A stretch of 64,000 nucleotides of DNA. Source: an uncultured Actinomycetes bacterium (GTDB lineage: Bacteria; Actinomycetota; UBA4738; HRBIN12). The position numbers were made by a program, and so were the translations under genes. How positions within the stretch are numbered: the stretch's first letter is position 1; each line of letters opens with the position of its first letter. This document shows positions 39,678 through 63,726 of the stretch, in pieces. The DNA lies in assembly GCA_963792215.1 (NCBI GenBank), contig CAWBVL010000007.1:134230-198229 (forward strand), in the 5' to 3' direction. The notes under the pieces were generated by a model. The model made no database searches. It was given only the letters and a program-made list of their open reading frames with translations, and was not told the DNA's origin.

Positions 39678-40267
39678 GAGGCCGGCACCTCCTCGAGGCC
39701 TGCCAGCGCACGGGACGCGGCCTTGAAGTTCGCGAACACCGGACCGCGCGCCGGGGCAGGCACATCGCCACCGCGCAGCGACGCGATCAGCTCGCGCATC
39801 CGCTCGGGCGTGACCTCGTCGTGGTTGCAGAAGTCGACCTGCACCGCCGGCGCGTGGTCGCACACGCCGAGGCACTCCTCTTCATGGACGGTGAACAACC
39901 CGTCGTCGGACCTTTCGGCGCCCTGCGCCACGCCCGCGGCTTCGTGCGCCGCCACGTACACCGCGTTCGCGCCACGCAACTTGCACGCAAGGTTGGTGCA
40001 GACGTTCACGACGTGCTCGCCGGTCGGCCGCAACCGGTACATCGAGTAGAAGGTCGCGACCGCTTCCACCTCCGCGGTCGTGATCCCGAGCAGCTCGCCG
40101 ATCTCGCGGAGCGCGTCCTGCGTCACCATCCCGTCGAGCGACTGCGCGAGGTAGAGCAGCGGCATGATCGCCGAACGCTCATGCGACGCCGGGTATCGGG
40201 CCATGATCGCCCGCGCGTCGTCGAGCGTCGCTCCCTCGAAGACCCTCTCGTCCCCGCCGGGCCGCAT
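39674..40267 (-). CDS. nuoE: NADH-quinone oxidoreductase subunit E
   Basis: VATFYSM, CTNLAC, ECLGVC. Confidence 0.93.
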   Translation of the reverse strand: MRPGGDERVFEGATLDDARAIMARYPASHERSAIMPLLYLAQSLDGMVTQDALREIGELLGITTAEVEAVATFYSMYRLRPTGEHVVNVCTNLACKLRGANAVYVAAHEAAGVAQGAERSDDGLFTVHEEECLGVCDHAPAVQVDFCNHDEVTPERMRELIASLRGGDVPAPARGPVFANFKAASRALAGLEEVPAS

Positions 40268-43068: not shown

Positions 43069-44319
43069 TCATGCCGCCTTCGCCAGCCGGAGCGCCAGGT
43101 CCAGCATCCGGTCCTGCAGGTCGCCGTCGCGACCGTCGGACAGGTTCGCCATCGCGCGGAGGGCGAACGACATGATCCCCCGCCGCGGCAACAGCGCGTT
43201 GGTCGCGCGGCCCATGATCGCCGGCTTGCCGATCACCGATGCGAACCACCTGCCGACCATGAAGTACGCGCCATACGTGTCCTCGAGCAGGCGCGGGTAC
43301 TGCATCGTGACGGCCGGGCGGTCGGTGATCAGCGCCTCGTGGACCAGCTCGGCCGCGATCTGTCCGGTCTCGATCGCGTAGGCGATGCCCTCGCCGTTGA
43401 ACGGGTTCACCGCGCCCGCCGCGTCGCCTACCAGCAGTAGCCCCGGCACCGCCTGCGGCGTCCGGTTCAGCCCCATGGGAAGCGGACCGGACAGCACGCG
43501 TCCCTCGGCCGTCTCCTCGCCGATGCCCCACTCCGGCGGCAGCATCCGCGCGAACGCGTCGAACAGGTGCTGCGCCGAGATGTCCTTGAAGTTCGCGAAG
43601 GTATTGAGGAGTCCCGCGCCGAGGTTGATCCGGCCGCCCGCCACCGGGAAGAGCCAGCCGTAGCCCGGCAGCAGCAGGTCGCCGTCCCACAGGTCGAGCC
43701 ACGACTCGATCCACGGCCCGGGGTGGTAGTCGATGCGGTAGTAGCGGCGCGCCGCGATCCCGAGCGGCTTCTTCGGGTCACGCGTCACGCCCGCCGGCTT
43801 CCCGAAGCGGCTCGCCGCGCCGTCCGCCGCGATCACGAACCGGGCGCGGATCTCGGTTGGCTCAGCGTCACGCTCCCCTGCCGGCCGGACGGTCGCGCCC
43901 GCCACGTACCCGTCGACGAACCGCGGCCCGATCGCCTCCGTCTGCTCCATCAGGCGCGCGCCGGCCTTCACCGCGCGCTGCGCCAACAGATGGTCGAACC
44001 CTTCGCGCGGCATCACGAGGCCGTACGGCGGGAACGACGTCAGGTCGGGCCACGGAAGCGAGATCGTCGTGCGCCGCGAATGCGTGCGCAGCCCGATGAC
44101 CTTCTCGAAGCCGGGGTCGGTGGTGTCGACGCCCATGTCTTCGATCGCCTTGACCGACCGGGGCGTGAGCCCGTCGCCGCACACCTTCTCTCTGGGGAAC
44201 GCGGCCTTCTCGACGACGGTGACGTCGATCCCGTGCCGAGCGAGGTGGTACGCGGTCGCGGACCCGCCCGGCCCGGCGCCGACGACGAGCACGTCGGTCT
44301 CGAACGACTCCACCCTCAC
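43069..44319 (-). CDS. menJ: Geranylgeranyl reductase family flavoprotein, probable menaquinone side-chain reductase
   Basis: VVGAGPGG, FPREKVCGDG, GYGWLFP, GDAAGAVNPFNGEGI; lies directly upstream of nuoA. Confidence 0.78.
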   Translation of the reverse strand: MRVESFETDVLVVGAGPGGSATAYHLARHGIDVTVVEKAAFPREKVCGDGLTPRSVKAIEDMGVDTTDPGFEKVIGLRTHSRRTTISLPWPDLTSFPPYGLVMPREGFDHLLAQRAVKAGARLMEQTEAIGPRFVDGYVAGATVRPAGERDAEPTEIRARFVIAADGAASRFGKPAGVTRDPKKPLGIAARRYYRIDYHPGPWIESWLDLWDGDLLLPGYGWLFPVAGGRINLGAGLLNTFANFKDISAQHLFDAFARMLPPEWGIGEETAEGRVLSGPLPMGLNRTPQAVPGLLLVGDAAGAVNPFNGEGIAYAIETGQIAAELVHEALITDRPAVTMQYPRLLEDTYGAYFMVGRWFASVIGKPAIMGRATNALLPRRGIMSFALRAMANLSDGRDGDLQDRMLDLALRLAKAA

Positions 44320-44356: not shown

Positions 44357-44374
44357 TTGTGAAAAGTTTCACAA
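44357..44374. promoter_or_regulatory. Rex-type operator palindrome TTGTGAA-N4-TTCACAA
   Basis: gagc-TTGTGAAAAGTTTCACAA-gctc, 37 nt upstream of the reductase-nuo operon start; rex lies in the same window. Confidence 0.85.
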
Positions 44375-45709: not shown

Positions 45710-45775
45710 GGCGGCAGTATCCCAAGTGCGGGTCCAGCGGCCGTGGGAACGTCTCCCTATCATGTACGCCAGCCC

Positions 45776-47581
45776 ATGAAGCGGACGTTCCGTTCCCTCG
45801 CGATCACCACCGCGGTGCTGACGCTGCTGCTGATCGCGTGGGGCGGGATCGTGCGCGCGACGGGCTCGGGGGACGGATGTCCGGACTGGCCCGCCTGCTT
45901 CGGCCGGTGGATCCCGCGGGCCGAGTACCACACGCTGATCGAGTACACGCACCGTCTCCTTGCGTTCCTGGCGGGCGTCGCGTCGCTGGCCCTCGCCGCC
46001 GTCGGCGGGTGGTCGCTGTTCCGCAAGGGCCCCGTCGAACGGGTTACTGCCTGGCTCGCCGTCGCGCTGCTCCCCCTATTCATCGTCCAGGCGCTGATCG
46101 GCGGTTGGATCATCCACTCCGGGGAGAACCCGAGCGTGGTGACGCTGCACTTCGCCGTCGCGTTCATCGTGCTCGGCCTTGTCGTGGTGATCGCGGCCCG
46201 GACGCTGCTGGGCACGGCCGCGGGCGGGGACCGGACGTACGCGCGGCTAACGCTTCTGGCGGCGGCCGCCACCTACGCGTTGCTGCTGGTCGGGACCTAT
46301 GTGCGGGCCGAGAACGCAGGCCTCGCGTTCCGTGAGTGGCCCCTGATGGGACAGAGCCTCGTGCCCGACCTGTCGCTCCCAGGCGCCGTCGCGATGTTCG
46401 CCCACCGGATGCTCGCGATCGTCGTCGTCGCCCTGGTCGCCTGGACGATGATCCGCGCCCGCACGATGACGCCGCGATCCCCGTTGCTCGTCCGACTCTC
46501 GACCGGGGCGCTGATCTTGCTGGTCATCCAGGTGTTGGTCGGGGGCGCCAACGTGCTCACAGAGCTCGCAACGTGGGCGCGGGCGTCCCACGTCGCCATC
46601 TCCGCGCTGATCTGGGCGACCGTCGTGGCGCTCACCGTCGCTGCCCGCGTCGAGCCGTCCGGCGACCGGTCGCCCGATCGAGCGACCGCCCCCGAGACCG
46701 AGGGCGTCACGCCGCCCACGATGGGCGACACGATCCGCGCTTACGTCGCGCTCACCAAGCCGCGCATCATCGTCCTGCTGCTGATCATAACCGTCCCGGC
46801 GATGGTCCTTGCGGCCGGCACGATCCCGTCGCTCGCGTTGATCCTGGTGACGTTGATCGGCGGCACCCTGGCCGCCGGCGCGGCCAACGCGATGAATATG
46901 TACCTGGACCGCGACATCGACCAGGTGATGCGCCGGACGCGCCAGCGGCCGTTGCCGAAGCACCGGATCGAGCCGGAGGCGGCGCTCCGGTTCGGGTTCG
47001 TGCTCGCCGCGATCGCGTACGCGTTCCTGGCGATCACGGTGAACGTGCTCGCCGCCGCCCTCGCGCTGTCGGCGATCGCGTTCTACGTCTTCGTCTACAC
47101 GATGTGGCTGAAGCGCTCGACCGACCAGAACATCGTGATCGGCGGCGCCGCCGGCGCAGTACCCGTCCTGGTGGGATGGGCGGCGGTCACGGGGTCGATC
47201 GCCATGCCCGCGATCGTGCTGTTCAGCGTCGTCTTCCTGTGGACGCCACCGCATTTCTGGGCCCTGGCGCTCCGGATGCGAGACGACTACGCGGCGGCCG
47301 GCGTGCCGATGATGCCGGTGGTCCGGGGCGACGACGAAACCCGCAAGCAGATCTTCCTGTACTCGCTGGTCCTGTTCGGGGTGACCCTGCTGTTGATCCC
47401 GATCGCCTCGATGGGGCCGGTCTACACCGCGACCGCGGTGGTCCTCGGCGGCGTGTTCGTGTACCGCTGCCTGCAGCTGTGGCGTGAGCCCAGCGACGAC
47501 CAGGCATGGCGGGTCTTCAAGTTCTCCCTGCTCTACTTGGCCGGGCTGTTCGTCGCGGTCGCGATCGACGCGCTGGTCTGA
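45776..47581 (+). CDS. ctaB: Fused heme A synthase (CtaA/COX15) and heme O synthase (CtaB/CyoE)
   Basis: N-half GCPDWPACFG, EYTHR; C-half LTKPRI, DRDIDQVMRRTRQRP, YTMWLKR, WTPPHFWAL. Confidence 0.9.
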   Translation: MKRTFRSLAITTAVLTLLLIAWGGIVRATGSGDGCPDWPACFGRWIPRAEYHTLIEYTHRLLAFLAGVASLALAAVGGWSLFRKGPVERVTAWLAVALLPLFIVQALIGGWIIHSGENPSVVTLHFAVAFIVLGLVVVIAARTLLGTAAGGDRTYARLTLLAAAATYALLLVGTYVRAENAGLAFREWPLMGQSLVPDLSLPGAVAMFAHRMLAIVVVALVAWTMIRARTMTPRSPLLVRLSTGALILLVIQVLVGGANVLTELATWARASHVAISALIWATVVALTVAARVEPSGDRSPDRATAPETEGVTPPTMGDTIRAYVALTKPRIIVLLLIITVPAMVLAAGTIPSLALILVTLIGGTLAAGAANAMNMYLDRDIDQVMRRTRQRPLPKHRIEPEAALRFGFVLAAIAYAFLAITVNVLAAALALSAIAFYVFVYTMWLKRSTDQNIVIGGAAGAVPVLVGWAAVTGSIAMPAIVLFSVVFLWTPPHFWALALRMRDDYAAAGVPMMPVVRGDDETRKQIFLYSLVLFGVTLLLIPIASMGPVYTATAVVLGGVFVYRCLQLWREPSDDQAWRVFKFSLLYLAGLFVAVAIDALV

Positions 47582-48130: not shown

Positions 48131-49468
48131 TCAGCCGACGGTGACGGTGCCGTTCATGTCCGGGTGTACATCGCAGTGGAAGAAATAGGACCCCGGCGGC
48201 AGTGCAGGGATCTGATACTGGACCGTCTTCACGCCGGTCACGATGCCGCCGGTGAACAACGGGTTCGTCGCTGAGGCGTCGGGGAAGATCGCGATGTCGT
48301 GCGGCACGTTCGCATCCTGATTGTCGAACGTCAGCGTGTACGGCTTATTCGCCGGCAACGTGATCGTCTGCGTGTCGAATGCAAGTCCGGAGGCCGTCAC
48401 AGTCGTCGTGTCCCCACCGGCCGGCGGCGGACCCGAGGTCGGCGGTGGCGCCGAGGTCGGCGGTGGTGCGCTCGTCGGCGGTGGACCGCTGGTCGGTGGC
48501 CCACTGCCTCCCCCACCGGCCGGCGTCACGGTGACCGTGCCGTTCATGTCGGTGTGGATGTCGCACCGGAAGAAGTATGTGCCCGGCTGGAGCGCCGGGA
48601 TCGTGTAATCGCCCTTCCCGACCCCGGTGACGAAGTCCCCGCGGAACAGGTTCTTCTTGGCCGAGCTGTCGGTGTAGATCGCCAGGTTGTGCTGGACGCC
48701 CGAGTCGTCGTTGTTGAAGGTGAACTGCGTCGGCTTCCCCGCCTGGAACGTCAGGCTGTCGGTGTTGAACTGGAGCCCCGACGCCGTGATCGACGACGAC
48801 ACGCCTCCACCGGGTCCCTCGGTGCTCGCGCCGGGTGAGGTCGTGAGCGTGCCGGTCATCGTCGTCGGGTGGAAGCTGCAGAAGAAGAAGTACTTCCCGG
48901 CAGGCAACGAGGGAACCGAGTAGTCGATGGTCGACACGCCCGTGATACCGCCGCCCTCGACGTAGGTCGTTGCGCTCGGGTCCTTCTGCGGGTCGGTCGA
49001 CGCGACCGTGACCTGGTGCTCGACGCCGGGGTCCTGGTTGTCGAACGTGATCGTGAACGGGGTGTCGGACGGTGCGGTGAGGGAGTTGTCCTGGAAGCCG
49101 CTCCCGGCGGCCCCCGACGGTGCGGTGATGGTGAGGACGACGGTCGGGGCCCCGGGTCCTTCCGTGCTTTTCGACGCAAGCAGCAGCGCGGCGCCGGACG
49201 CGAGCATCGCCACACCGATCACGCCGACCCCGACCGTCAGCAGCGACCCGGTGTTCACGCGCTTACGCGAGGCGACGATCCCGACCACCGTCACGATGCC
49301 GGCGGCGGTGACGAACGCGGTCGCGGTCGCGGCATGCGGCTCCATCCGAAGCAGCAACCGCGAGAACCCCCACAGCACGATCCCGATGCCGATCAGCAAT
49401 ACCAGCGGGATCAGGATCGGCAGGAGCAGGCTCTGGCGTGGCCGCGGCGCCTTCGGATCGTCGGTCAT
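48131..49468 (-). CDS. Membrane-anchored protein with three cupredoxin domains
   Basis: Three N-terminal hydrophobic helices; three repeats of F-x-N-x-D-x3-H...Y-F-F-x-C-x2-H-x2/3-M-x-G. Confidence 0.85.
   Translation of the reverse strand: MTDDPKAPRPRQSLLLPILIPLVLLIGIGIVLWGFSRLLLRMEPHAATATAFVTAAGIVTVVGIVASRKRVNTGSLLTVGVGVIGVAMLASGAALLLASKSTEGPGAPTVVLTITAPSGAAGSGFQDNSLTAPSDTPFTITFDNQDPGVEHQVTVASTDPQKDPSATTYVEGGGITGVSTIDYSVPSLPAGKYFFFCSFHPTTMTGTLTTSPGASTEGPGGGVSSSITASGLQFNTDSLTFQAGKPTQFTFNNDDSGVQHNLAIYTDSSAKKNLFRGDFVTGVGKGDYTIPALQPGTYFFRCDIHTDMNGTVTVTPAGGGGSGPPTSGPPPTSAPPPTSAPPPTSGPPPAGGDTTTVTASGLAFDTQTITLPANKPYTLTFDNQDANVPHDIAIFPDASATNPLFTGGIVTGVKTVQYQIPALPPGSYFFHCDVHPDMNGTVTVG
48425..48500 (-). 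repeat. Four 18-nt tandem units encoding PPTS(G/A)P linker
   Basis: Protein GPPTSGPPPTSAPPPTSAPPPTSGPPP between cupredoxin domains 2 and 3. Confidence 0.75.
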
Positions 49469-51279: not shown

Positions 51280-53139
51280 TCAGTCCGCCACCGAGGGCTC
51301 GAGGGCCCAGCCCGTCAGCCCGACCACGATCACCAACGCGCCCGCCGCCACGAGCCACCAGGAATACAGAACCCCATAGCCGAGCAGCGGGAACCCGAAC
51401 GACACGACCAGCGGCCAGAACGACGGGCTCGGCAGATGGATCGCGTGGCCCTCGCCGTGATGCTCCTCGCCTGACCCACCCGCGGGCACGCGCACCAGCC
51501 GGCCGCTCTCGTCCTCTGCGTACTTGCGGTGCCAGAACTCGTCCAGCGAGTGCACCGTCGGGATCTCCTCGAAGTTGTAGACCGGCGGCGGGCACGCGGT
51601 CGTCCACTCGAGCGTGCGCGCATCCCACGGGTCCTCGTTCTCCAGGCCGGCCGGCTTCGTCAGGCTGCGGATCACCAGGATGATGAACAGCAGCACGCTG
51701 AGCGCGATCGTGAACGCGCCGACCGAGGACATCTGGTTCCAGAACGTGAGGCCTAGCGCCGCCGGGTAGGTGTACTCGCGACGGATCATCCCGCCGAGGC
51801 CCAGGATGTGCATCGGCGCGAACGTCAGGTTGAACCCGATCAGCAGGATCCAGAACTGCACCTTGCCCCACTTCTCAGGCAGCAATCGTCCGAACACCTT
51901 CGGCCACCAGTAGTACGCCGCGCCGAAGATCGCGAAGATCGCGCCGCCGAAGAGCACGTAGTGGAAGTGCGCCACGACGTAGTAGGTGTCGGTCTGCTGG
52001 TAATCCGACGGCACGATCGAGTGCGTCACGCCCGACAGCCCGCCGATCACGAACATCGCGATGCCGCCGATCGCGAACAGCATCGGCGTGTCCAGATGCA
52101 GATCGCCCCCGTACAGCGTCCCCATCCAGTTGAAGATCTTCACGCCGGTCGGCACCGCGATGATCGCCGTCGAGATCCCGAACGCGGTGTTCGCGACCGG
52201 ACCCAGGCCCGCCGCGTACATATGGTGCACCCACACGCCGAACCCGATGAACCCGATCGCGATCCCGGAGAACACCACGAACTGGTAGCCGAACAACGGC
52301 TTCCGCGCGAACACCGGCAGGATCTCGCTGAAGATGCCGAAGGCGGGCAAGATCAAGATGTAGACCTCGGGATGGCCGAATAACCAGAACATGTGTTGCC
52401 ACAGCAACGGCTCCCCGCCGCGGGTCGGATCGAAGAAGGCGGTATCCCACCGCCGGTCGAACAGCATCTGGAACAGCGCGACCGTGATGATCGGCAGCGA
52501 GAACGCCAGCAGGAACTGCACGACCAAGCCCATCCACACGAACACCGGCATCCGGAACAGCGACATGCCGGGCGCGCGCATGTTGATGACGGTGATCGCC
52601 AGGTTGATCGCGCCGACGGTCGACGCGATACCGGTGATCAGCAGGCCGAGCGCGTAGAACGTCATCCCGTTGCCCGGGTCGGTCGTCGAGTTCGGCGCGT
52701 ACGCGAACCAGCCGCCGTCGGGCGCGCCGCCCAGGAACCAGCTCGAGTTGAGGAACAGCGCGCCGAGCAGGAACACCCAGAACGACAGCGCGTTCAGCCG
52801 CGGGAACGCAACGTCGCGCGCGCCGATCATCAACGGGATCAGGTAGTTGAAGAACGCCGCCGACATCGGCATGACGAACAGAAAGATCATCGTCAGGCCG
52901 TGCATGGTGAAGATCTGGTTGTACTGGTCCGCGTTCAGCAGTGTGTTGCTCGGCTTGGACAACTGCGACCGGATCAGCAGCGCTTCGCAGCCGCCGAGCA
53001 CGAAGAACAGGAACGACGACAACCCGTACATGATCCCGATCTTCTTGTGGTCCACCGTCGTGAACCAGCTCCAGAAGCCCGTCGTCGCCATAGGGCGGCG
53101 CAGGATGCCTCGTTCGCGGGTCACGGTGACAGTTGCCAT
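51280..53139 (-). CDS. ctaD: Cytochrome c oxidase subunit I (A1 type)
   Basis: DHKKIG, FTMHG, GHPEVY, VWVHHM, AHFHY. Confidence 0.96.
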   Translation of the reverse strand: MATVTVTRERGILRRPMATTGFWSWFTTVDHKKIGIMYGLSSFLFFVLGGCEALLIRSQLSKPSNTLLNADQYNQIFTMHGLTMIFLFVMPMSAAFFNYLIPLMIGARDVAFPRLNALSFWVFLLGALFLNSSWFLGGAPDGGWFAYAPNSTTDPGNGMTFYALGLLITGIASTVGAINLAITVINMRAPGMSLFRMPVFVWMGLVVQFLLAFSLPIITVALFQMLFDRRWDTAFFDPTRGGEPLLWQHMFWLFGHPEVYILILPAFGIFSEILPVFARKPLFGYQFVVFSGIAIGFIGFGVWVHHMYAAGLGPVANTAFGISTAIIAVPTGVKIFNWMGTLYGGDLHLDTPMLFAIGGIAMFVIGGLSGVTHSIVPSDYQQTDTYYVVAHFHYVLFGGAIFAIFGAAYYWWPKVFGRLLPEKWGKVQFWILLIGFNLTFAPMHILGLGGMIRREYTYPAALGLTFWNQMSSVGAFTIALSVLLFIILVIRSLTKPAGLENEDPWDARTLEWTTACPPPVYNFEEIPTVHSLDEFWHRKYAEDESGRLVRVPAGGSGEEHHGEGHAIHLPSPSFWPLVVSFGFPLLGYGVLYSWWLVAAGALVIVVGLTGWALEPSVAD

Positions 53140-53156
53140 CGGTCGGGTTCGCGCTC

Positions 53157-54311
53157 CTACGAGAGGCTATAGAGGTAGGCCATCAGGTACTGGATCTGTT
53201 GTGGCGTCAGGTTGTAGTCCGGCATCTTCGCACCGAGCTTGACCGCGTTCGGATCTTCGAGCCACGCCGACAACGCGGCTTCGTTCGGCTGGCCGTTGAC
53301 GAACGTGTCGAAGTCGCACCCGGCGAAACAGGGGTGCGTCTGGTCCGCGAAGTCGGACAGGTTCGGCGCCGCCGTGCTGACGGCCGACGTCCCCCCGATC
53401 GAATGACACGCGATGCACTGCCCCGCGCCCTCGCCGATCGTCCCGGGGGTGCCGAAGAAGATATCCATCCCCTTGGCCGCGTCGCTGCCCGGGGCCGGCG
53501 TCGGCGCCGGCTGTTTCCGCGCCTGGACCCAGTTGGCCCAGTCGGTCGGGTTCAGGGCGATGATCCGGAACTTCATCATCCCGTGCTCGAGGCCGCAGAA
53601 CTCCGCGCACTGGCCCCAATAGACGCCTGGCTCCCAGGCGGAGAACACGATGTGGTTCCCTTCGCCGGCCGCGCCCGGCACGACGTCCTGTTTGCCGAAC
53701 AGGCGCGGCGCCCAGAACGAATGGATGACCTGGTGGTCGGGCGTACCGTCGGTGCTGTGCGCGCCCCCGCCCTCGGACCGCAGCGACAGGTCGATCGTCC
53801 GCCCCGCGGGGATCACCATCACGTCGGCCGTCGTGATCGGGCCGTGGTCGCCGTAGTTGACCGCCATGTCCTGGTCCATGTATTGGAAGCCCCACCACCA
53901 CTGATAGCCCTGCACGGTGATCTGCATCGCGTCGGGCGGCCGCTGCGCGAGCTTCCAGATCAACGAGATCGCGGGCACCATCACGACCGCGAGCAGCACG
54001 GCCGGCGCCACGGTCCATCCCAGTTCGAGGCGTGTGTTGCCGTGCAGCTGGCTCGGCATCCGCTCCTTGCCCTTGCGATGCCGGAACTTGAGGGCGAGGA
54101 AGAGGATGCCGCCTTCCACGCCGACGAAGACGATCCCCGCGATGATCAGTGGGACGATCAGCACGTCCTTCTCGGACTGCGCGGTCGGTCCGGCGGGATT
54201 GAAGGTGTTCTGCGGCAGGTCCTTGCCACAGCCGACCAACAGGAGCGTGAGCAGGACGGCCCCCACGACCCACAGCAGCTTCCTCGGCACCCTGCTCCTC
54301 ATCGTCCGCAT
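53157..54311 (-). CDS. ctaC: Cytochrome c oxidase subunit II with fused cytochrome c (caa3 type), lipoprotein
   Basis: Lipobox LVGC; YQWWW; CuA ligands HSFW and CAEFCGLEHGMM; C-terminal CIACH...KMP; start uncertain (54311 or 54302). Confidence 0.92.
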   Translation of the reverse strand: MRTMRSRVPRKLLWVVGAVLLTLLLVGCGKDLPQNTFNPAGPTAQSEKDVLIVPLIIAGIVFVGVEGGILFLALKFRHRKGKERMPSQLHGNTRLELGWTVAPAVLLAVVMVPAISLIWKLAQRPPDAMQITVQGYQWWWGFQYMDQDMAVNYGDHGPITTADVMVIPAGRTIDLSLRSEGGGAHSTDGTPDHQVIHSFWAPRLFGKQDVVPGAAGEGNHIVFSAWEPGVYWGQCAEFCGLEHGMMKFRIIALNPTDWANWVQARKQPAPTPAPGSDAAKGMDIFFGTPGTIGEGAGQCIACHSIGGTSAVSTAAPNLSDFADQTHPCFAGCDFDTFVNGQPNEAALSAWLEDPNAVKLGAKMPDYNLTPQQIQYLMAYLYSLS

Positions 54312-54422
54312 GTCACGTCGCCTGCGGCGAGCCGGCTGGACATTACCACCGCGTCTTGACGCGCCGGTCGTCCCCCATTTCCGTTGCACCGGTTCACATC
54401 AGCCCTGTCGCGTCCCAGCAGG

Positions 54423-57079: not shown

Positions 57080-57811
57080 TCACAGCAGCGGTCCGTACTT
57101 GATCAGCGGCGCCAGCCGCCGGGTGAACTCCCCCGTCGCCACCAGCACGCCGACCACCACGAGCAGCGAGCCCGATACGACGGCGATCGCGCGGTAGTGG
57201 CGCTGCACCCAGCGAGCGGAACCGGCGAGCCACTCCACGCCGAGCCCGAGCGCGATGAACGGGATACCAAGCCCGAGCGAGTAGCAGAGCAGGAGGAACG
57301 CGCCCCAGCGCGAGCTCCCCACCGCGGCCAGACCCAAGATCGCGCCCAGGACCGGGCCGACGCACGGCGTCCAGCCGGCAGCGAACGCCATCCCCAACGG
57401 CAGCGCTCCGGCGGTCCCCGGGTGCACCCGCTCGAGGAATGGCCGGCGCTCGGCGTACAACCGGATCGACCCCCGGCCCAGCGCGTACCCGATCAGCAGC
57501 ACGCCGAGGACGACGATCACAACACCGGCCACGATCTGTCCGCGCCGGTCCTTGACCAGGTGGACGAACGTCGAGGCGAACGCTCCGTACAGCGTGAACA
57601 TCACGGTGAAGCCCGCGACGAACAGCAGGATCGGCGCCAGCCGGTGCCACCGGCCGCGGCCCTCGTCGGTCACGGCCTCGCCGGTCACGAACGACAGGTA
57701 GCCCGGCACGAGCGGCAAGACGCACGGGCTCGCGAACGAGACGAACCCCGCGAGCATCGCGACCAACGGCGCCCACACATGGGTGACCGTGTCGCTGGTG
57801 TCGCCGATCAT
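57080..57811 (-). CDS. ccdA: Cytochrome c biogenesis protein CcdA
   Basis: SFASPCVLPLVPGYLS, FAAGWTPCVGP. Confidence 0.92.
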   Translation of the reverse strand: MIGDTSDTVTHVWAPLVAMLAGFVSFASPCVLPLVPGYLSFVTGEAVTDEGRGRWHRLAPILLFVAGFTVMFTLYGAFASTFVHLVKDRRGQIVAGVVIVVLGVLLIGYALGRGSIRLYAERRPFLERVHPGTAGALPLGMAFAAGWTPCVGPVLGAILGLAAVGSSRWGAFLLLCYSLGLGIPFIALGLGVEWLAGSARWVQRHYRAIAVVSGSLLVVVGVLVATGEFTRRLAPLIKYGPLL

Positions 57812-57988
57812 CGGCGGGGCGTCCGGGTGCTCACCACGGGGTCAGTCTAGGGTCGGAGCCGCGTCTGACGGTCCGGCGAGGTCCCCTCACGTGCAGCGTT
57901 TGTGACTAGACGCGCCGCCCGGGCATCATGTCGGTGTCGCCCGCGGTTGGGACACCCGGCCTACGGACGGCGAACAGGTTGAATCGCT

Positions 57989-58450
57989 ATGATTCCGCCG
58001 CCAACCGAACGGATGGGCATGGGTCAGATCGACGTCACCTCGAAGTCGCGGACGAAGCAGCGAGCGAGCGGCGTCAAGGCACGCATCGAGAACTTCCTCC
58101 GCACGTTCGAATGGAGCTGGACCTCCGCGGTCACGTTCGCGCTCGTCCTCACGTTCTTCCTCCTGATCTCGACCTCGATCATGCCGTCGTTCTGGATGTA
58201 CTACGCCGAGCAGAAGATCGGCTGGGCGGGTCCGACCGACATCGAGGCCTTCCTCAAGACCCCGTTCGGCACGAGCCTCACGAACCCGCTGTCGCCCGAG
58301 GGCTATCTGATGGTCCGCGACGCGATCGCGATGGGCCTGACCACCCTGCCGTTCGTGCTTGTCTTGGTCGTGTCGGCGGCGCTGCAGAACTGGCGCAAGA
58401 AGCTCCGCGGCGGCGAGTCCGGCGCCCGACCCACGGGTGGGTACCGCTAG
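57989..58450 (+). CDS. Hypothetical two-TM membrane protein, first gene of the Rieske/cytochrome b operon
   Basis: Two hydrophobic segments; TAG directly abuts the ferredoxin ATG; real start may be a few codons downstream. Confidence 0.7.
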   Translation: MIPPPTERMGMGQIDVTSKSRTKQRASGVKARIENFLRTFEWSWTSAVTFALVLTFFLLISTSIMPSFWMYYAEQKIGWAGPTDIEAFLKTPFGTSLTNPLSPEGYLMVRDAIAMGLTTLPFVLVLVVSAALQNWRKKLRGGESGARPTGGYR

Positions 58451-58849
58451 ATGCCGTTCACCAAGACCGAGGTCGACATCCATGACGACTACACGGTCGA
58501 GGCCGTCGACGCCGCCTGGCTCGCGCAGGGCGTGAAGTCGCCGAAGCATCTGATGCTCGACCCCGACAACTGCATCCTGTGTCGCGCGTGCGAGGACGTG
58601 TGTCCGTGGAACTGCATCTGGATGATGTCCAACGAGATCGTCGAGCAGACCGACGAGGAGTCGGTCGCCGCCGAGATCCGCTCGACCACCACCGCCCTGT
58701 TCGTGGTCGACGACAACGCCTGCACGCGTTGCTCGGTGTGTGTTGACCGCTGCCCCACCGACACCCTGTACTATGCGCGACTGCCTGAGGGCTCCGGAGG
58801 TCGGCGCGCCCTCGCGGACGTCCCACTGGACCAAGCTGAATCGGCGTAG
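58451..58849 (+). CDS. 2[4Fe-4S] ferredoxin-like protein
   Basis: [12 protein letters not shown] and [12 protein letters not shown]; no signal peptide or TM helix. Confidence 0.88.
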
Positions 58850-58887
58850 AACGGCGTACGGAGAGGCGACGGGGAGGAACGACCGGA

Positions 58888-59640
58888 GTGGCGAAGATCC
58901 AGCCGCCGAACCTGCGGGAATCTGAGGTCTGGAAGTCGATCTTCAGGCCGGGCTCGATCTATCGCAAGGGCTACAAGGACACGTCGCGCGACCGCGCGCT
59001 CGCGACGATGAACAACGTGCTGTGGCACCTGCACCCCACGAAGGTGAAGCGCCACGGGTTGAAGCTCACCTACACGTTCTGCCTCGGCGGCCTGTCGTTC
59101 TTCCTGTTCGTGCTGCTGACGATCACCGGCATCTTCCTGATGTTCTTCTACCGGCCGATGGCCGACATCGGCGGCGCGCAGGCCTACACCGACATGCAGA
59201 CGATCCGCACGTCGGTGTTCTTCGGCGACATGGTCCGCAACATGCATCGATGGGGCGCGCACCTCATGGTGCTGTCGGTGACGCTGCACATGGCGCGCGT
59301 GTTCTACACCGGCGCGTACAAGCCGCCGCGCGAGTTCAACTGGGTCGTCGGCGTCGTGCTGCTGTTCCTCACGCTCGGCCTCTCGTTCACCGGCTACCTG
59401 CTCCCGTGGGACCAGCTGGCGATCTGGGCCGTCACCGTCGGGACGTCGCTCGCCGGCTACTCGCCGTTCATCGCGAAGCAGGCCAACTTCCTGCTCCTCG
59501 GCGGCGCGATCGTGTCGCCCAATACCTTGTTGCGCTGGTACGTGCTGCACGTGCTCGCGCTGCCGTTCGTCTTGGTGCTGTTCCTCGCGGTCCACTTCTG
59601 GCGGATCCGTAAGGACGGCGGGATCTCGGGGCCGCTCTAG
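58888..59640 (+). CDS. qcrB: Cytochrome b6-like subunit (split cytochrome b, N-terminal part)
   Basis: TFCLGG, MHRWGAH...[13 protein letters not shown]-x14-HF, C-terminal GISGPL. Confidence 0.92.
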
Positions 59641-60486
59641 ATGACCTGGGAAGAAGTCAACAAGGACATGGGCGCCTACCAGACGGCGCTCGATGCACAG
59701 ACGTCCTCGGGGGTCGACCGCCGTGTCGCCGAGGGACGCGCTCGCCGCGCCGCGGTGCGCGCCTACCTCAAGGAGCACCCCGAAGAGGAAGCCGCGCACG
59801 CGGCCCAGGCACGAACCGCTGCGCCCGCCGGCGCCCCTGCTGCTGCCGCGGCGAGTGGGAACGGCGGAGCCGCTGCGCCGGTCGCCGCACCGGTGGGCGC
59901 GGGGGTCGCCGTCGCCGCTGCGCCGATCACCGCCGCGGTGCGTGAGGCGCCGCTGCCGACCGGCAACATCCCCGAGCCGAAGAAGGGCGCGCCCGACAAG
60001 CACCGCCTGCTCGCGATCGTGCCGCCCGAGGGCATCCAGCGGGTCGAGCGCGAGCAGGGCGACCGCGTTCACACGTGGCCGCACCTCCTGCTCGAAGAGT
60101 TCATCGCGATGGCGATCCTGTTCGCCGGCTTGCTGGTGTTCTCCTCGCTGATCAACGCGCCGCTGCGCGAACTCGCGAACCCGAACCTGACCCCGAACCC
60201 GTCCAAGGCGCCGTGGTACTTCCTCGGCCTGCAGGAGCTGCTCCGCTACTTCCACCCGATGGTTGCGGGCATCGTGATCCCAACGTTCATCCTGGTCGGG
60301 CTCGCGGCGGTCCCCTACGTGGACCGCAACCCGAGCATCAAGCCCGGCGATCGCAAGGTCGCGATCACGCTGTTCGCGATCCTGTTCATGTTCGGCGCGA
60401 CCCTCACGATCATCGGTTGCTTCTTCCGAGGGCCCGGCTACAACTGGATCTGGCCCTGGACACAAGGGGTCTTCTTCGAGCTATGA
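59641..60486 (+). CDS. Cytochrome b subunit IV (PetD-like) with Ala-rich N-terminal extension
   Basis: TWPHLL, ANPNLTPNPSKAPWYF, PYVDRNP; three TM helices. Confidence 0.85.
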   Translation: MTWEEVNKDMGAYQTALDAQTSSGVDRRVAEGRARRAAVRAYLKEHPEEEAAHAAQARTAAPAGAPAAAAASGNGGAAAPVAAPVGAGVAVAAAPITAAVREAPLPTGNIPEPKKGAPDKHRLLAIVPPEGIQRVEREQGDRVHTWPHLLLEEFIAMAILFAGLLVFSSLINAPLRELANPNLTPNPSKAPWYFLGLQELLRYFHPMVAGIVIPTFILVGLAAVPYVDRNPSIKPGDRKVAITLFAILFMFGATLTIIGCFFRGPGYNWIWPWTQGVFFEL

Positions 60487-61193
60487 CGTTCCTCGCCATC
60501 TCCAACGGCACCCTCGCGGTGATCATCGTCGTGATCTTGGCCGACATCTTCTTGGTCGCGTTCCTGATCGGGTACTCCCGCCGGGCGCGCGCCGCGAAGC
60601 GTGCGGCTGCAGGCGAGCTGCCCGCCGCGCCGGCGAAGGCGGTCAGCCGCCGTGACTTCCAGCGGCGGGCGCTGCTCACGTCGGTGATGCTGTTCGGCGC
60701 GGAGTTCGGCCTGGGCACGATCGGGTTCCTGTGGCCAAACCTCAAAGGTGGGTTCGGTTCGAAGATCAACGCCGGCCCGCTGCAGGAGATCAAGTCGGAG
60801 ATCCAGACCGCGAACTACGTCTACGTCGGCGCGGCCCGCACCTACCTGGTCGCATGGAACGGCACGCCGGGCGCCGGCCTGGCCGACTACCCGGCCGAAG
60901 GCGTGACGTCGGACGGCGTGATGTCGCTGTACCAGCGCTGCGTGCACCTCGGGTGCCGTGTCCCGTTCTGCAACTCGTCGAAGTGGTTCGAGTGCCCGTG
61001 CCACGGCTCGAAGTACAACAACGCCGGCGAATACAAGCTCGGACCGGCGCCGCGCGGCCTGGACCGGTTCCAGATGTCAGTCGTCGACGGGAGCGTGATC
61101 GTCGACACCTCGACGATCAAGCTCGGCCCGCCCCGCGGCACGAATACCACCGACCAACCGCTCGAAGGCCCCTTCTGCGTGGCGCCGGGATGA
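60483..61193 (+). CDS. qcrA: Rieske iron-sulfur subunit
   Basis: SRRDF Tat-like motif; CVHLGC, CPCHGSKY, GPAPRGL. Confidence 0.93.
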   Translation: MTFLAISNGTLAVIIVVILADIFLVAFLIGYSRRARAAKRAAAGELPAAPAKAVSRRDFQRRALLTSVMLFGAEFGLGTIGFLWPNLKGGFGSKINAGPLQEIKSEIQTANYVYVGAARTYLVAWNGTPGAGLADYPAEGVTSDGVMSLYQRCVHLGCRVPFCNSSKWFECPCHGSKYNNAGEYKLGPAPRGLDRFQMSVVDGSVIVDTSTIKLGPPRGTNTTDQPLEGPFCVAPG

Positions 61194-61921
61194 TCGCGTC
61201 GACGAACTACGCCGCGGTCACGCTGATCGCCGCCGGGGGCGCGTTCATCGTGGGCATCATCGCGGTCGTCGCGCTTCGCCACCGCGCGAAGGGGAAGCGC
61301 GCCGAGGTCCCCGCGGGGATGCGGCCTGGGCCGTCGGACCAAGCGCTCGAGACGCCGCTCCTGCTCAAGCTGCAGGGCTGGGGCGTGGTGCTCGTCACGT
61401 TCTTCGTGCTGTGGTTCCCGGTGATGTGGCTCATCGAGCCGAACACGAACCTGAAGCAAGAGAACCAGCTCGTCACCGAGGCGATCGCACGCGGCCAGCT
61501 CGCGACCCAACCGTTCTCCGAAGAGAACGGCCTCGGTGTGGGCTGCGTCCGCTGCCACGGCAACGAGTTGCAGGGCGGTGTGATCAACGCGCTCGACGCG
61601 AAGGGGAACCCGATCCTCGCCTACCCGCCGAACCTCACCACGGTCTGCGGCGGACCGTTCTACAACCACCCCAACATCTTCAGCATCGACGACATCTTCC
61701 AGGTGATCCAGGAAGGCCGGGGTGCGATGCCGTCCTGGAGCATCCGGTATTCGGGCGCGCTCGACGATCAGCAGATCAACGACCTCGTGCTGTACCTGGT
61801 GCAGCTCAGCTCGCAGAACGTGTCGTTCGACAAGAACGTTTGCCTGAACAAGGCGGCGTCGGACAAGGCGCTCGCCGAGAACGCGAAGTCCGCCTCGCCA
61901 CTCGACCCGAGGGACCCGTAG
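61190..61921 (+). CDS. Membrane-anchored monoheme cytochrome c
   Basis: Two TM helices, CVRCHG, GAMPSW (Met ligand); ATGA overlap with the Rieske gene. Confidence 0.88.
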   Translation: MIASTNYAAVTLIAAGGAFIVGIIAVVALRHRAKGKRAEVPAGMRPGPSDQALETPLLLKLQGWGVVLVTFFVLWFPVMWLIEPNTNLKQENQLVTEAIARGQLATQPFSEENGLGVGCVRCHGNELQGGVINALDAKGNPILAYPPNLTTVCGGPFYNHPNIFSIDDIFQVIQEGRGAMPSWSIRYSGALDDQQINDLVLYLVQLSSQNVSFDKNVCLNKAASDKALAENAKSASPLDPRDP

Positions 61922-62668
61922 ATGGAGCAGCACTCCTGCCTGACGTTCGCCGTGGACTGCGGCGTGATGTTCAAGGGGATCGGCGTCGTGCTCGCCGGCT
62001 TCATCTTGTTCGTCGGGAGCGTCTACATGTTGCTCACCGCGATCTTCGGCCGGTACATGGCGTATCTCGTGGTCGCCGTGGCCTTCTTCGGATGGATGAC
62101 GATCCAGTCCGGCATCTGGCTGTTCGGGTTCTGGTCCCAAGGTCCTCAGACGAAGACGAACCTCGGACCGCGCGGGCCTGAGCCCGCCTGGGTGGTGGAC
62201 TCCGCCGGGCTGGATCCCGGCGCCACCCACGGGGAGCTCGCGTCGTATCCGAGCGGCGCGTATCCCGAACCCAACCCGAGCGACCCCGTGCAGGCCGCCG
62301 ATCTGCAGGCCGCAACGGGGGTCGTGACCACCTATCTGGCAGACACGGCCAATGCGCAGCTGGGCAACGACCCCTTGGACTACACGGCGCTGCAGCCCAC
62401 GCAATTCACGGTCGATGACCTGCGCTTCGTGACGGCCGAGGACGGGACGAAGCTCGCCGTCGCTCAGGCGCACTTCTTAGGCGGTGGGCCGAACACGATC
62501 GTGACGCTGCATTACAGCGGCGGGCAGGTGTGGCACTACTCGTTGATCTTCTTGATCGGGTCGGCGTTGCTGTTGATCGTGCACATCCCGTTGCTGGACC
62601 GCGCGGAGCGTTCGCGCAAGGAATTCCTGGTCGGTGGCACCGCGCCGCCGTGGTACGGACCGGCCTAA
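61922..62668 (+). CDS. Hypothetical three-TM membrane protein
   Basis: ATG directly after the cytochrome c TAG; two N-terminal and one C-terminal hydrophobic helix around an acidic domain. Confidence 0.75.
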   Translation: MEQHSCLTFAVDCGVMFKGIGVVLAGFILFVGSVYMLLTAIFGRYMAYLVVAVAFFGWMTIQSGIWLFGFWSQGPQTKTNLGPRGPEPAWVVDSAGLDPGATHGELASYPSGAYPEPNPSDPVQAADLQAATGVVTTYLADTANAQLGNDPLDYTALQPTQFTVDDLRFVTAEDGTKLAVAQAHFLGGGPNTIVTLHYSGGQVWHYSLIFLIGSALLLIVHIPLLDRAERSRKEFLVGGTAPPWYGPA

Positions 62669-62679
62669 CAGGAGGAACG

Positions 62680-62802
62680 ATGCTGCATCTGCTCGCCGCG
62701 CAGGAAGTGCCGATCTTCGATCAGGGAGCGATCCAGTTCATCCTGCTCGTGGTCATGATCCTGATCGTCTCGTTCCTGATCTGGCTCACGATCCCGCGCT
62801 GA
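62680..62802 (+). CDS. 40-aa single-TM small protein
   Basis: RBS AGGAGG ending 4 nt before the ATG; MLHLLAAQEVPIFDQGAIQFILLVVMILIVSFLIWLTIPR. Confidence 0.7.
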   Translation: MLHLLAAQEVPIFDQGAIQFILLVVMILIVSFLIWLTIPR

Positions 62803-63467
62803 CTTCGCGCGCCTCGGCGCCGCGCTGCTCGTAATACGCCAGGATCTGCAGCTCGACCGCGAGATCGACTTTCCGAACCGTCACGCCCTCCGGCACGGTC
62901 ACGACCGCCGGCGCGAAGTTCAGGATCGACCGCAAGCCCGCTTCGACCATCCGCTCCGCGACGTCCTGCGCGGCCGTGGCAGGTGTCGCGACCACCCCGA
63001 TGGCGATGGCTTCGTCTCGCACGAGACGCAGGCAGATCATCGAGGTCGCGCACCTCGAGGCCTTCGATCTGCATGCCACGCTTCGCGGGGTCGGTGTCGA
63101 CGAGCGCGGCGACGCGGAAGCCGCGCTCGGTGAAGCCGCGGTAATGCGCGAGTGCTTGGCCGAGGTTCCCGATGCCGGCGATCACGATCGCCCAGTGCTG
63201 GGTCAGGCCCAGCTGTTCTCGCACCTCGTGGATCAGATGCCAAACGTCATACCCGACGCCGCGCGTCCCGTAAGAGCCGAGATACGACAGGTCCTTTCGC
63301 ACCTTGGCCGAGGTGACGCCGGCGGCGTCCGCCAGGGCCTCGGACGAGACGGTCGCGTCGCCAGCGTCGGCGATGCTGACCAACGCTCGGAGATACAAGG
63401 GAAGCCGGGCGACGGTCGCGTCCGGGATCGCGCGCCTCGGCGCATCCGAACGTCCGTTCCCGGTCAC
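62786..63467 (-). CDS. rex: Redox-sensing transcriptional repressor Rex, apparent frameshift near 63027
   Basis: IPDATVARLPLYLR, VRKDLSYLGSYGTRGVGY, GIGNLGQAL; C-terminal ILNFAP...VDLAVELQIL in ORF 62786..63079. Confidence 0.93.
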
Positions 63468-63489
63468 CTCCGTAGCCTAGCCGCGCATC

Positions 63490-63726
63490 TCAGGCCTCGA
63501 CCGCGGCCCGGAATACGGCCGGATCGACCGAGATCTCGAACCGCTCCTCTCCGTCAACGGTGACCACGGGGATCCGGATCCCGTAGTCGCGGATCAACGC
63601 GTCGTCGGTCTCGATGTCGATCTCGGTGAAGTTGAACGGGGTCGTGCGGCGAACGTCTTCGATCACGCGCCGAGCCTCGTCGCACAGGTGACAACCGTCG
63701 CGCGCATACAGGACGACGCTGGTCAC
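63490..63726 (-). CDS. Glutaredoxin-like protein (DUF836)
   Basis: LYARDGCHLCDEA, YGIRIPVV. Confidence 0.87.
   Translation of the reverse strand: MTSVVLYARDGCHLCDEARRVIEDVRRTTPFNFTEIDIETDDALIRDYGIRIPVVTVDGEERFEISVDPAVFRAAVEA

Follow-up and report, generated by a model that had tools for sequence, protein, structure and literature searches.

A conserved actinobacterial operon encodes a b6-type Rieske/cytochrome b complex together with a candidate cytoplasmic ferredoxin partner

Few enzymes of bioenergetics have been studied as closely as complex III, yet the delivery of electrons from ferredoxin to heme ci, on the cytoplasmic side (n-side) of the membrane, has been under dispute since the first b6f structures, both as to whether it occurs and as to how. 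We know of no dedicated ferredoxin gene in b6f operons or in the corresponding operons of Bacillus and heliobacteria. Here we analyse an eight-gene operon from an uncultured Actinomycetes bacterium, located at positions 57989-62802 on the + strand of a 64,000-nucleotide stretch of contig CAWBVL010000007.1 (the whole of this stretch is referred to below as the window). This is a real and strongly conserved operon, which combines the genes for a b6-type Rieske/cytochrome b complex with that for a candidate n-side Fe-S partner, a small two-cluster ferredoxin.

The closest described systems each share some of its features. In the QcrCAB complexes of the same phylum (PDB 7q21 and 6adq), menaquinol oxidation feeds an aa3-type oxidase, cytochrome b is unsplit and QcrC is a diheme cytochrome. 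A cytochrome b split into b6 and subunit IV, a heme-ci cysteine and small single-transmembrane (TM) peptides are found in the QcrABC complexes of Bacillus and heliobacteria and in b6f, for which electron input from ferredoxin to heme ci has long been debated (Dibrova et al. 2017, PMC5600118). In the text of their survey, Kao & Hunte (2014, PMC4122944) describe an APWY clade of split cytochromes b that combine APWY and CxGG motifs; a few deep-branching Actinobacteria, such as Ilumatobacter (I. coccineum YM16-304), are listed as carriers, and the clade is said to have no characterised member and to require experimental proof of heme ci binding. It overlaps with 'subfamily G' of Dibrova et al. 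(PMC5600118). In the anammox complexes Kuste4569-4574 and Kustd1480-1485, as presented in the text of PMC12954380, a b6-type core with a counterpart of heme ci, heme cN, is accompanied by an operon-encoded cytoplasmic Fe-S subunit that was modelled next to the n-side hemes, where it would receive electrons from heme bN/cN. Finally, the extHIJKLMNOPQS cluster of Geobacter, which includes the cytochrome b-type proteins ExtP and ExtQ, encodes multiheme cytochromes (of which ExtM has 12 hemes), a porin and a rhodanese and, as far as the text of the source goes, no ferredoxin (PMC5877670).

A sequence-only reading of the window had proposed the gene list, the gene order and the tight junctions of the operon, and all of these were borne out by the coordinates of the open reading frames (ORFs) and by the junctions as read from the DNA. 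The eight ORFs, o1 to o8, were confirmed at their positions and are co-directional. At the o1/o2, o3/o4 and o6/o7 junctions the stop codon TAG directly abuts the next ATG, whereas the o4/o5 and o5/o6 junctions are ATGA overlaps. Ribosome-binding sites are present in the 38-nt gap that precedes o3 (GGAGG) and in the 11-nt gap that precedes o8 (AGGAGG). This arrangement is not a matter of chance, as the gene order repeats in all relatives with a sufficiently long contig. A search of 57500-63600 revealed no sigma-70-like promoter. Four soil RNA libraries, of which X3 and X4 appear to be a single data set deposited under two names, contain contigs that match the window at 90% identity or more, span the greater part of the operon and bridge all seven junctions. 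These contigs show neither a strand nor a single transcript and DNA carry-over is possible, so that they lend weak support to the expression and co-transcription of the operon.

The redox core begins with o3, a cytochrome b6 (58888-59640, 250 aa, GTG start), and o4, subunit IV (59641-60486, 281 aa), two separate ORFs between which cytochrome b is split, as expected of b6-type complexes with their four-helix b6 and three-helix subunit IV. o3 matches Pfam Cytochrome_B (E 4.7e-42) and, when all solved chains were searched using phmmer, aligned to the b6 subunit of b6f complexes (E 7e-44). Of the NCBIfam models, Geobacter ExtP was just exceeded (292.3 bits, cut-off 290), while o3 remained under the cut-offs of the Bacillus-type b6 model (204.9 bits, cut-off 325) and of the actinobacterial QcrB_actin model (111.3 bits, cut-off 500). 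o4 matches Pfam Cytochrom_B_C (E 7e-09) and falls far below the ExtQ cut-off (57.8 bits, cut-off 150); a porin, a rhodanese or multiheme genes of the Ext type were not found near the operon. Both histidine pairs are in place in o3, and its Cys65, within an FCLGG motif, aligns to the heme-ci-binding Cys35 of b6 in PDB 6rqf and 1q90. Across an alignment of 34 sequences from relatives, which are 66-98% identical to the window protein, C65, H120, H134, H221 and H236 are invariant (34/34), making Cys65 a putative site at which heme ci could be covalently bound. In subunit IV, the Qo motif is APWY in place of the canonical PEWY or PDWY seen in Bacillus QcrABC and b6f, and the residues K189, A190, P191, W192, Y193 and F194 (KAPWYF) are invariant in 31/31 sequences.

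With a split cytochrome b, APWY and CxGG, the window protein carries all the motifs by which the APWY clade was defined, and would by this measure belong to it. It has FCLGG, where the clade usually has WCMGG (PMC4122944). In addition, the main text of that survey makes no mention of a ferredoxin or of counterparts of o1, o7 or o8 for its actinobacterial members (PMC4122944). Both cytochrome b subunits are extended at their cytoplasmic N-termini. In b6, a conserved extension of about 40 residues, in which R20, P21, G22, S23, G28, Y29, D31, R34 and R36 are invariant (34/34), falls outside the ExtP model and outside the region that aligns to solved b6f structures. The long N-terminus of subunit IV opens with a conserved helix-like start, continues as an Ala/Pro-rich linker and ends, ahead of the first TM segment, in a conserved RLL..V....IQ block. 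An invariant HLHP motif was also seen within the first 50 residues of b6 (window 58888-59030), its histidines (His47 and His49) preceding the heme-ci cysteine by 16-18 residues. The AlphaFold3 models of the anammox complexes contain an additional heme b, which is bound by one N-terminal histidine of cytochrome b from each monomer and leads on to the Fe-S chain (PMC12954380).

The Rieske [2Fe-2S] protein is encoded by o5 (60483-61193, 236 aa; Pfam Rieske, E 1.6e-08). An N-terminal TM segment is followed by a twin-arginine-like SRRDF at residue 55 and by a second hydrophobic stretch. While extra N-terminal TM segments and a twin-arginine motif are also features of the Rieske protein of QcrCAB, o5 reaches just 24 bits against the actinobacterial QcrA model (cut-off 275). 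Its cluster boxes are CVHLGC and CPCHGSKY, and C153, H155, C158, C171, C173, H174, S176 and Y178 are invariant in 40/40 sequences. The best solved match is the Kuste4569 Rieske protein of Kuenenia stuttgartiensis (PDB 9rk4, E 1e-14), which likewise has CPCHGSKY, and the other PDB matches are Rieske proteins from b6f and bc1 complexes. According to the text of PMC12954380, Kuste4569 has a potential of +303 mV, the Ser and Tyr of this box being two hydrogen-bond donors that raise the potential; a menaquinone organism with a Rieske protein of high potential, which for o5 would hold by analogy, is a further likeness between the anammox complexes and the window. The gene that follows, o6 (61190-61921, 243 aa), encodes a membrane-anchored monoheme cytochrome c of class I (Pfam Cytochrome_CBB3, E 5.5e-07; Cytochrom_C, E 8.8e-05), with two N-terminal hydrophobic segments and a single CxxCH at residue 119. 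It follows the Rieske gene in 51/51 of the relatives' loci examined (L003-L053). As a separate two-TM protein, it is neither fused to subunit IV, as in the Bacillus type, nor a cytochrome f, and its single heme sets it apart from diheme QcrC and from the hexa- and octaheme cytochromes that are the p-side partners in anammox complexes (PMC12954380). A 493-aa frame that joins o6 to o7 in a same-genus genome (G002, L031:5271-6752) was not counted as a fusion, because the C-terminus of o6 is scrambled there and a frameshift is likely.

The ferredoxin is encoded by o2 (58451-58849, 132 aa), which matches Pfam Fer4 (E 5.9e-13) and contains two CxxCxxCxxxCP motifs, as expected of a 2x[4Fe-4S] protein. 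All eight of its cluster cysteines are invariant in 34/34 sequences. Since it has neither a TM segment nor a signal peptide, the protein is cytoplasmic. It carries an insert of about 35 residues between the cluster motifs and a conserved N-terminal extension. The best NCBIfam match is NuoI, at 41 bits against a cut-off of 113, while its sequence neighbours in the PDB are the FwdF and MvhB polyferredoxins and NdhI. A predicted model (predicted local distance difference test, pLDDT, 70) has FwdF, PscB and NuoI/NdhI as fold neighbours, at template modelling (TM) scores of about 0.4. Several of these sequence and fold neighbours are two-cluster subunits that dock on larger complexes. In the anammox complexes, by contrast, the n-side position is taken by a large FAD/NAD(P) oxidoreductase that carries four Fe-S clusters (PMC12954380), where the window has a 132-aa ferredoxin and a two-TM protein, and by Pfam search none of the eight operon products has a flavin or NAD(P) domain. 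In a complex prediction from alignments of o1, o2 (as the partner), o3 and o4, the median ipSAE was 0.28 against a mark of 0.32; the prediction was run without controls and favours neither side. Four database proteins that combine Fer4 with Cytochrome_B contain long out-of-frame stretches and were set aside as frameshift or assembly artefacts.

The three remaining products are membrane proteins. The first, o1 (57989-58450, 153 aa), has TM segments at 47-65 and 112-130 by hydropathy and, because both of its termini are basic, these are probably cytoplasmic. An alignment of 31 sequences revealed a signature of W44, A47, P66, D111, Q133 and Y152 together with a C-terminal ...GGYR tail, and ORFs found upstream of the ferredoxin gene in other families align with o1, share the same six residues and end in a GGY[KR] or YGRPL tail. 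o1 has no match in Pfam or NCBIfam; a PDB profile search gave 0 matches at E<=10, and its Atlas matches are 'hypothetical protein' clusters of Actinomycetota only. In the case of o7 (61922-62668, 248 aa), hydropathy and the confident AlphaFold model (pLDDT 89; predicted template modelling score, pTM, 0.73) agree on three TM helices, two of them N-terminal and one C-terminal, and the model adds an alpha/beta domain of some 135 residues on the extracytoplasmic side. The only family match is DUF7541, which is sub-threshold (18.3 bits, cut-off 28), and all 884 database relatives are 'hypothetical'. A Foldseek search of the PDB returned no match at E<=0.001, the best Z in a VIA wide search was 7.8, over long helices only, a PDB profile search found nothing below E 0.5, and the Atlas search yielded unnamed actinobacterial clusters only. 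o7 thus belongs to no known family or fold. The last product, o8 (62680-62802, 40 aa), is a single-TM peptide, again without a match in Pfam or NCBIfam. It was found after o7 by tblastn (E<=1e-3) in 16/31 order-level loci, including two from other families (L018 and L025); a 40-aa peptide is easily missed by tblastn, and the remaining 15 loci are no evidence of absence. As the sequence-only reading had suggested, these accessory ORFs could not be assigned to a family.

The same reading had named, as a test that could refute it, a lack of conservation of the ferredoxin and the accessory ORFs beside cytochrome b. Among 20 order-level regions, 13 extend as far as o1, and in 13/13 the genes o1 to o7 are colinear. 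In the remaining 7 the contig breaks off within b6 or subunit IV and the genes still present keep the same order, so that no deviating gene order was found among the 20 loci. o7 is present in 38/41 genomes from the genus and order, with each of the 8 families represented (35/38 once the unpublished genomes G017, G029 and G037 are left aside). The arrangement extends further still. In 20 regions from 20 genomes of other families, chosen around a ferredoxin match and none of them unpublished, the order membrane ORF, ferredoxin, b6, subunit IV, Rieske protein and cytochrome c is seen in 20/20, with ferredoxins just 34-55% identical to o2. An o1-like membrane ORF ends at or just before the ferredoxin start in 20/20 of these loci. 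By a start-codon heuristic, the o1 stop and the ferredoxin start overlap or lie within 5 nt of each other in 13/20, compared with direct abutment in the window. An o7-like N-terminal region follows the cytochrome c gene in 18/20. The ferredoxin and the accessory ORFs are, therefore, conserved beside cytochrome b both within the order and in other families.

Beyond these loci, a ferredoxin ortholog (E<=1e-12) was detected in 124/301 sampled Actinomycetota genomes (114/291 without ten unpublished genomes). When species-representative genomes were scanned using the ferredoxin alignment, 510/599 candidate stretches were confirmed. The best 80 of these 510 are labelled Actinomycetota, Actinomycetes, Nitriliruptorales, Euzebya, Egibacteraceae or Acidimicrobiia, with a single exception (L090), a 2010-bp contig filed under an 'uncultured Methanomassiliicoccales archaeon' metagenome-assembled genome (MAG). 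This contig encodes a ferredoxin 67% identical to o2 and is most likely actinobacterial and mis-binned. Four genomes of other families (G050, G162, G169 and G158) have two ferredoxin matches each (E<=2e-24), on different contigs, which suggests that some lineages carry two copies of the operon. It was also observed that the contigs of L014, L016, L017, L018, L021, L024 and L033 end inside b6 or inside the Ala/Pro-rich linker of subunit IV. Short-read assemblies seem to break at this GC-rich, low-complexity stretch and, as a result, the ferredoxin and o1 upstream of it are easily lost from MAG annotations.

To place the operon in the respiratory chain of its host, we turned to the MAG itself (82.5% complete, 8 contigs). 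The cytochrome b of the operon was the only match in a PF00033 search of this genome, and a QcrB-type gene (NF050120, E<=1e-60) was found neither there nor in two genomes of the same genus that are 98% and 97% complete. The contrast with QcrCAB drawn in the sequence-only reading thus holds for this genome. Its suggestion of menaquinol oxidation is supported as well: menA scores above its cut-off, a match of the MqnA/D type is absent from the genome, and menaquinol is for this reason the likely substrate. The window as a whole is a respiratory island in which nuo genes, caa3 oxidase genes, CtaG, CoxIII and ResC/ResB/CcdA precede the operon, an aerobic setting with an oxidase next door that is unlike that of the anammox complexes. 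The region 51280-54389 (- strand) encodes a CoxI with a C-terminal Cyt_c_ox_IV domain and a CoxII with a C-terminal cytochrome c domain; from this domain make-up, the oxidase would be caa3-like and able to take electrons directly from o6. In the wider sample of 301 genomes, 64 contain both the ferredoxin operon and a QcrB-type gene, 60 (including those of this genus) contain the ferredoxin operon only, 35 contain QcrB only and 142 contain neither; without the unpublished genomes, the corresponding numbers among 291 are 54, 60, 35 and 142. Since 64 of the 124 carriers also have a canonical QcrB, the operon is not merely a replacement for QcrCAB, and the presence of two types of complex III in one cell suggests different jobs and a division of labour.

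In light of these data, it is very probable, judging from the sequences of its products, that the operon encodes a b6c-type menaquinol:cytochrome c oxidoreductase, that is, a complex III, and on present evidence this would be the only complex III of the organism. In the model that we prefer, menaquinol would be oxidised at the APWY Qo site. One electron would then pass from the Rieske protein to the o6 cytochrome c, to the cytochrome c domain of CoxII and finally to O2, while the other would return, by way of hemes bL, bH and ci, to the Qi site and there reduce menaquinone, as in a Q cycle. The ferredoxin o2 would be held at the cytoplasmic face by o1, for which o1 is a candidate because the two genes are translationally coupled, and possibly also by the N-terminal extensions of b6 and subunit IV. 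There it could form an electron side path between the n-side hemes (bH/ci) and low-potential cytoplasmic carriers. o7 and o8 may be lineage-specific accessory membrane subunits on the outer side. Whether or not the direction is as we suppose, the proposal that the ferredoxin is a bound n-side redox module appears to us evenly poised. If it is bound, electrons would probably flow inward, from reduced ferredoxin-level donors through heme ci to menaquinone, because this route, long proposed for ferredoxin and heme ci in b6f, is downhill and leaves room for a working Q cycle in an organism without a second complex III. The product of a 2-oxoacid:ferredoxin oxidoreductase-type gene in the genome (POR_N, 182 bits) is a possible candidate for the donor. 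A b6c complex III with a ferredoxin side path remains the best explanation for the locus as a whole, and one to which we give roughly even chances of being right. A stronger version, in which complex III is hard-wired to the ferredoxin, with the clusters of o2 within tunnelling distance of heme ci or bH, so that the enzyme acts as a ferredoxin:quinone reductase or carries out quinol-driven bifurcation, is put forward tentatively, as a possibility that is rather less likely to be true than false.

Several observations weigh against the preferred model. The case for o1, o2, o7 and o8 as partners of the complex is built on gene linkage, and adjacency and translational coupling would be equally expected of assembly factors. 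The fold of o2 is generic and its model, with a pLDDT of 70, is of only moderate confidence, and a search among its longer homologues turned up no natural fusion between the ferredoxin and a core subunit. We infer, in addition, the attachment of heme ci, the cluster content and all of the potentials. A second complex III could be encoded in the missing part of the incomplete MAG, and in those carriers that also have canonical QcrB the operon's product need not be the housekeeping complex III. Lastly, a Rieske protein of the Ser/Tyr type would, by analogy with the +303 mV anammox protein, rather favour outward bifurcation, so that the inward direction is left to the physiological argument only. 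In such a bifurcating, or 'reverse', complex, the n-side ferredoxin would again be bound, but the oxidation of menaquinol by the high-potential branch of Rieske protein, cytochrome c and oxidase would push the second electron via the low-potential b hemes out to the [4Fe-4S] clusters, yielding ferredoxin-level reductant for the cytoplasm, much as NAD(P)H production has been proposed for the anammox complexes. Both Rieske hydrogen-bond donors are indeed present throughout (CPCHGSKY, 40/40), Kuste4569 is the best solved match, and the co-residence of canonical QcrB in 64/124 genomes suggests a distinct job for the operon. Furthermore, menaquinone, for which menA is present, has a potential of about -70 mV, a symmetry argument would on that basis place heme bL very low (PMC12954380), and complexes with APWY were proposed, in the text of Kao & Hunte, to run in reverse (PMC4122944). 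Nevertheless, in this genus the complex is the only Rieske/cytochrome b complex found and stands beside a caa3 oxidase; it must therefore sustain ordinary respiration, and with an obligatory low-potential branch half of the electrons would have to find a sink. Both the residues on the Qi side and the heme-ci cysteine are retained, and the potentials of the hemes and clusters are purely inferred. On balance, we consider outward bifurcation unlikely.

A serious rival of a different kind is that o1 and the ferredoxin assist the maturation of b6 without being stable subunits, for example by keeping heme and the Cys65 thiol reduced so that the one thioether bond of heme ci can form on the cytoplasmic side. 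The cysteine for heme ci is invariant, and System II cytochrome c maturation, whose ResB, ResC and CcdA genes lie next to the operon, operates on the outer side only. Moreover, o1 is a small membrane protein with a few invariant residues (W, P and D), and a strict co-occurrence and coupling with b6 would fit a dedicated factor as well as a subunit. To our knowledge, however, Bacillus and heliobacteria attach heme ci without a ferredoxin gene of this kind beside their qcr or pet genes. The cluster of the Geobacter relative ExtOPQ, as described in the text of PMC5877670, is likewise without a ferredoxin, and a position at the start of the operon with 1:1 translational coupling is more typical of structural subunits. 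An assembly role in n-side heme-ci attachment is therefore not what we expect, serious as it is, and we rate it as rather improbable. Least plausible of all is that the locus simply carries unattached passengers, namely a soluble general ferredoxin and unrelated o1, o7 and o8 proteins that are merely co-transcribed with the core genes. Such a view would be in keeping with the generic fold of the ferredoxin, with its lack of a membrane anchor and with the fact that its binding to the complex is proposed from gene linkage. Yet the arrangement is kept across families whose ferredoxins have diverged as far as noted above, and the ferredoxin has the same neighbours on both sides in 20/20 sampled loci, a stability that would be unusual for unrelated passengers.

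A number of other features were observed in the window. A convergent rex gene (62786-63467, - strand) adjoins the operon and is split over two frames near 63020-63080. The parts of rex are contiguous and in one frame in 19 relatives' loci, and the window copy is either a pseudogene or the result of an assembly indel. When we searched for a Rex operator consensus (TTGTGAANNNNTTCACAA), no match with <=3 mismatches was found near the operon, and within the window it has two matches, at 39994 and 44357. The latter, at 44357-44374, is a perfect match to the consensus, TTGTGAAAAGTTTCACAA, and the only perfect site in the window. It is located just upstream of a gene for an FAD-dependent oxidoreductase (43069-44319, - strand) that heads the nuo run. 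A 612-aa ORF (45743-47581, + strand) joins COX15/CtaA (heme A synthase) and UbiA/CtaB (heme O synthase) domains, and a 445-aa protein with three cupredoxin-like stretches (48131-49468, - strand), the tri-cupredoxin of the sequence-only reading, is encoded between a thioredoxin-like protein and CtaG, within the group of caa3 oxidase genes.

The sequence-only reading had considered the operon, together with the tri-cupredoxin, the best candidate in the window for an undescribed system. This is true in part. The cytochrome b type is already in print, as the APWY clade (PMC4122944) and as subfamily G (PMC5600118), and anammox bacteria are known to have b6-type complexes with n-side Fe-S modules (PMC12954380), so that 'undescribed' is an overstatement for the complex as such. 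What stands is the combination with a ferredoxin and small membrane proteins, on which no text was found: a literature search for the small ferredoxin, o1, o7 or o8 in Actinomycetota returned no description, supplementary operon figures being beyond its reach.

Many of the carriers, which make up 124/301 of the sampled Actinomycetota, are abundant uncultured soil lineages, and in these a central respiratory enzyme may have an n-side side-door for electrons. We know of no n-side heme-ci maturation system outside oxygenic phototrophs and, if the ferredoxin turned out to be an assembly factor for heme ci, this gap too would be filled. If, instead, the ferredoxin is a subunit, the complex would offer a stable, stoichiometric contact between ferredoxin and heme ci that is suited to purification and cryo-EM, and genome-based reconstructions of respiratory chains, which now read 'complex III present or absent', would change. 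Were complex III in fact hard-wired to its ferredoxin, it would be a long-sought ferredoxin:quinone reductase, or a source of ferredoxin-level reductant in aerobic soil Actinomycetota. It would in that case also provide a non-photosynthetic, genetically simple model for electron exchange between heme ci and ferredoxin, and would explain why half of the carriers have a second, canonical bcc complex.

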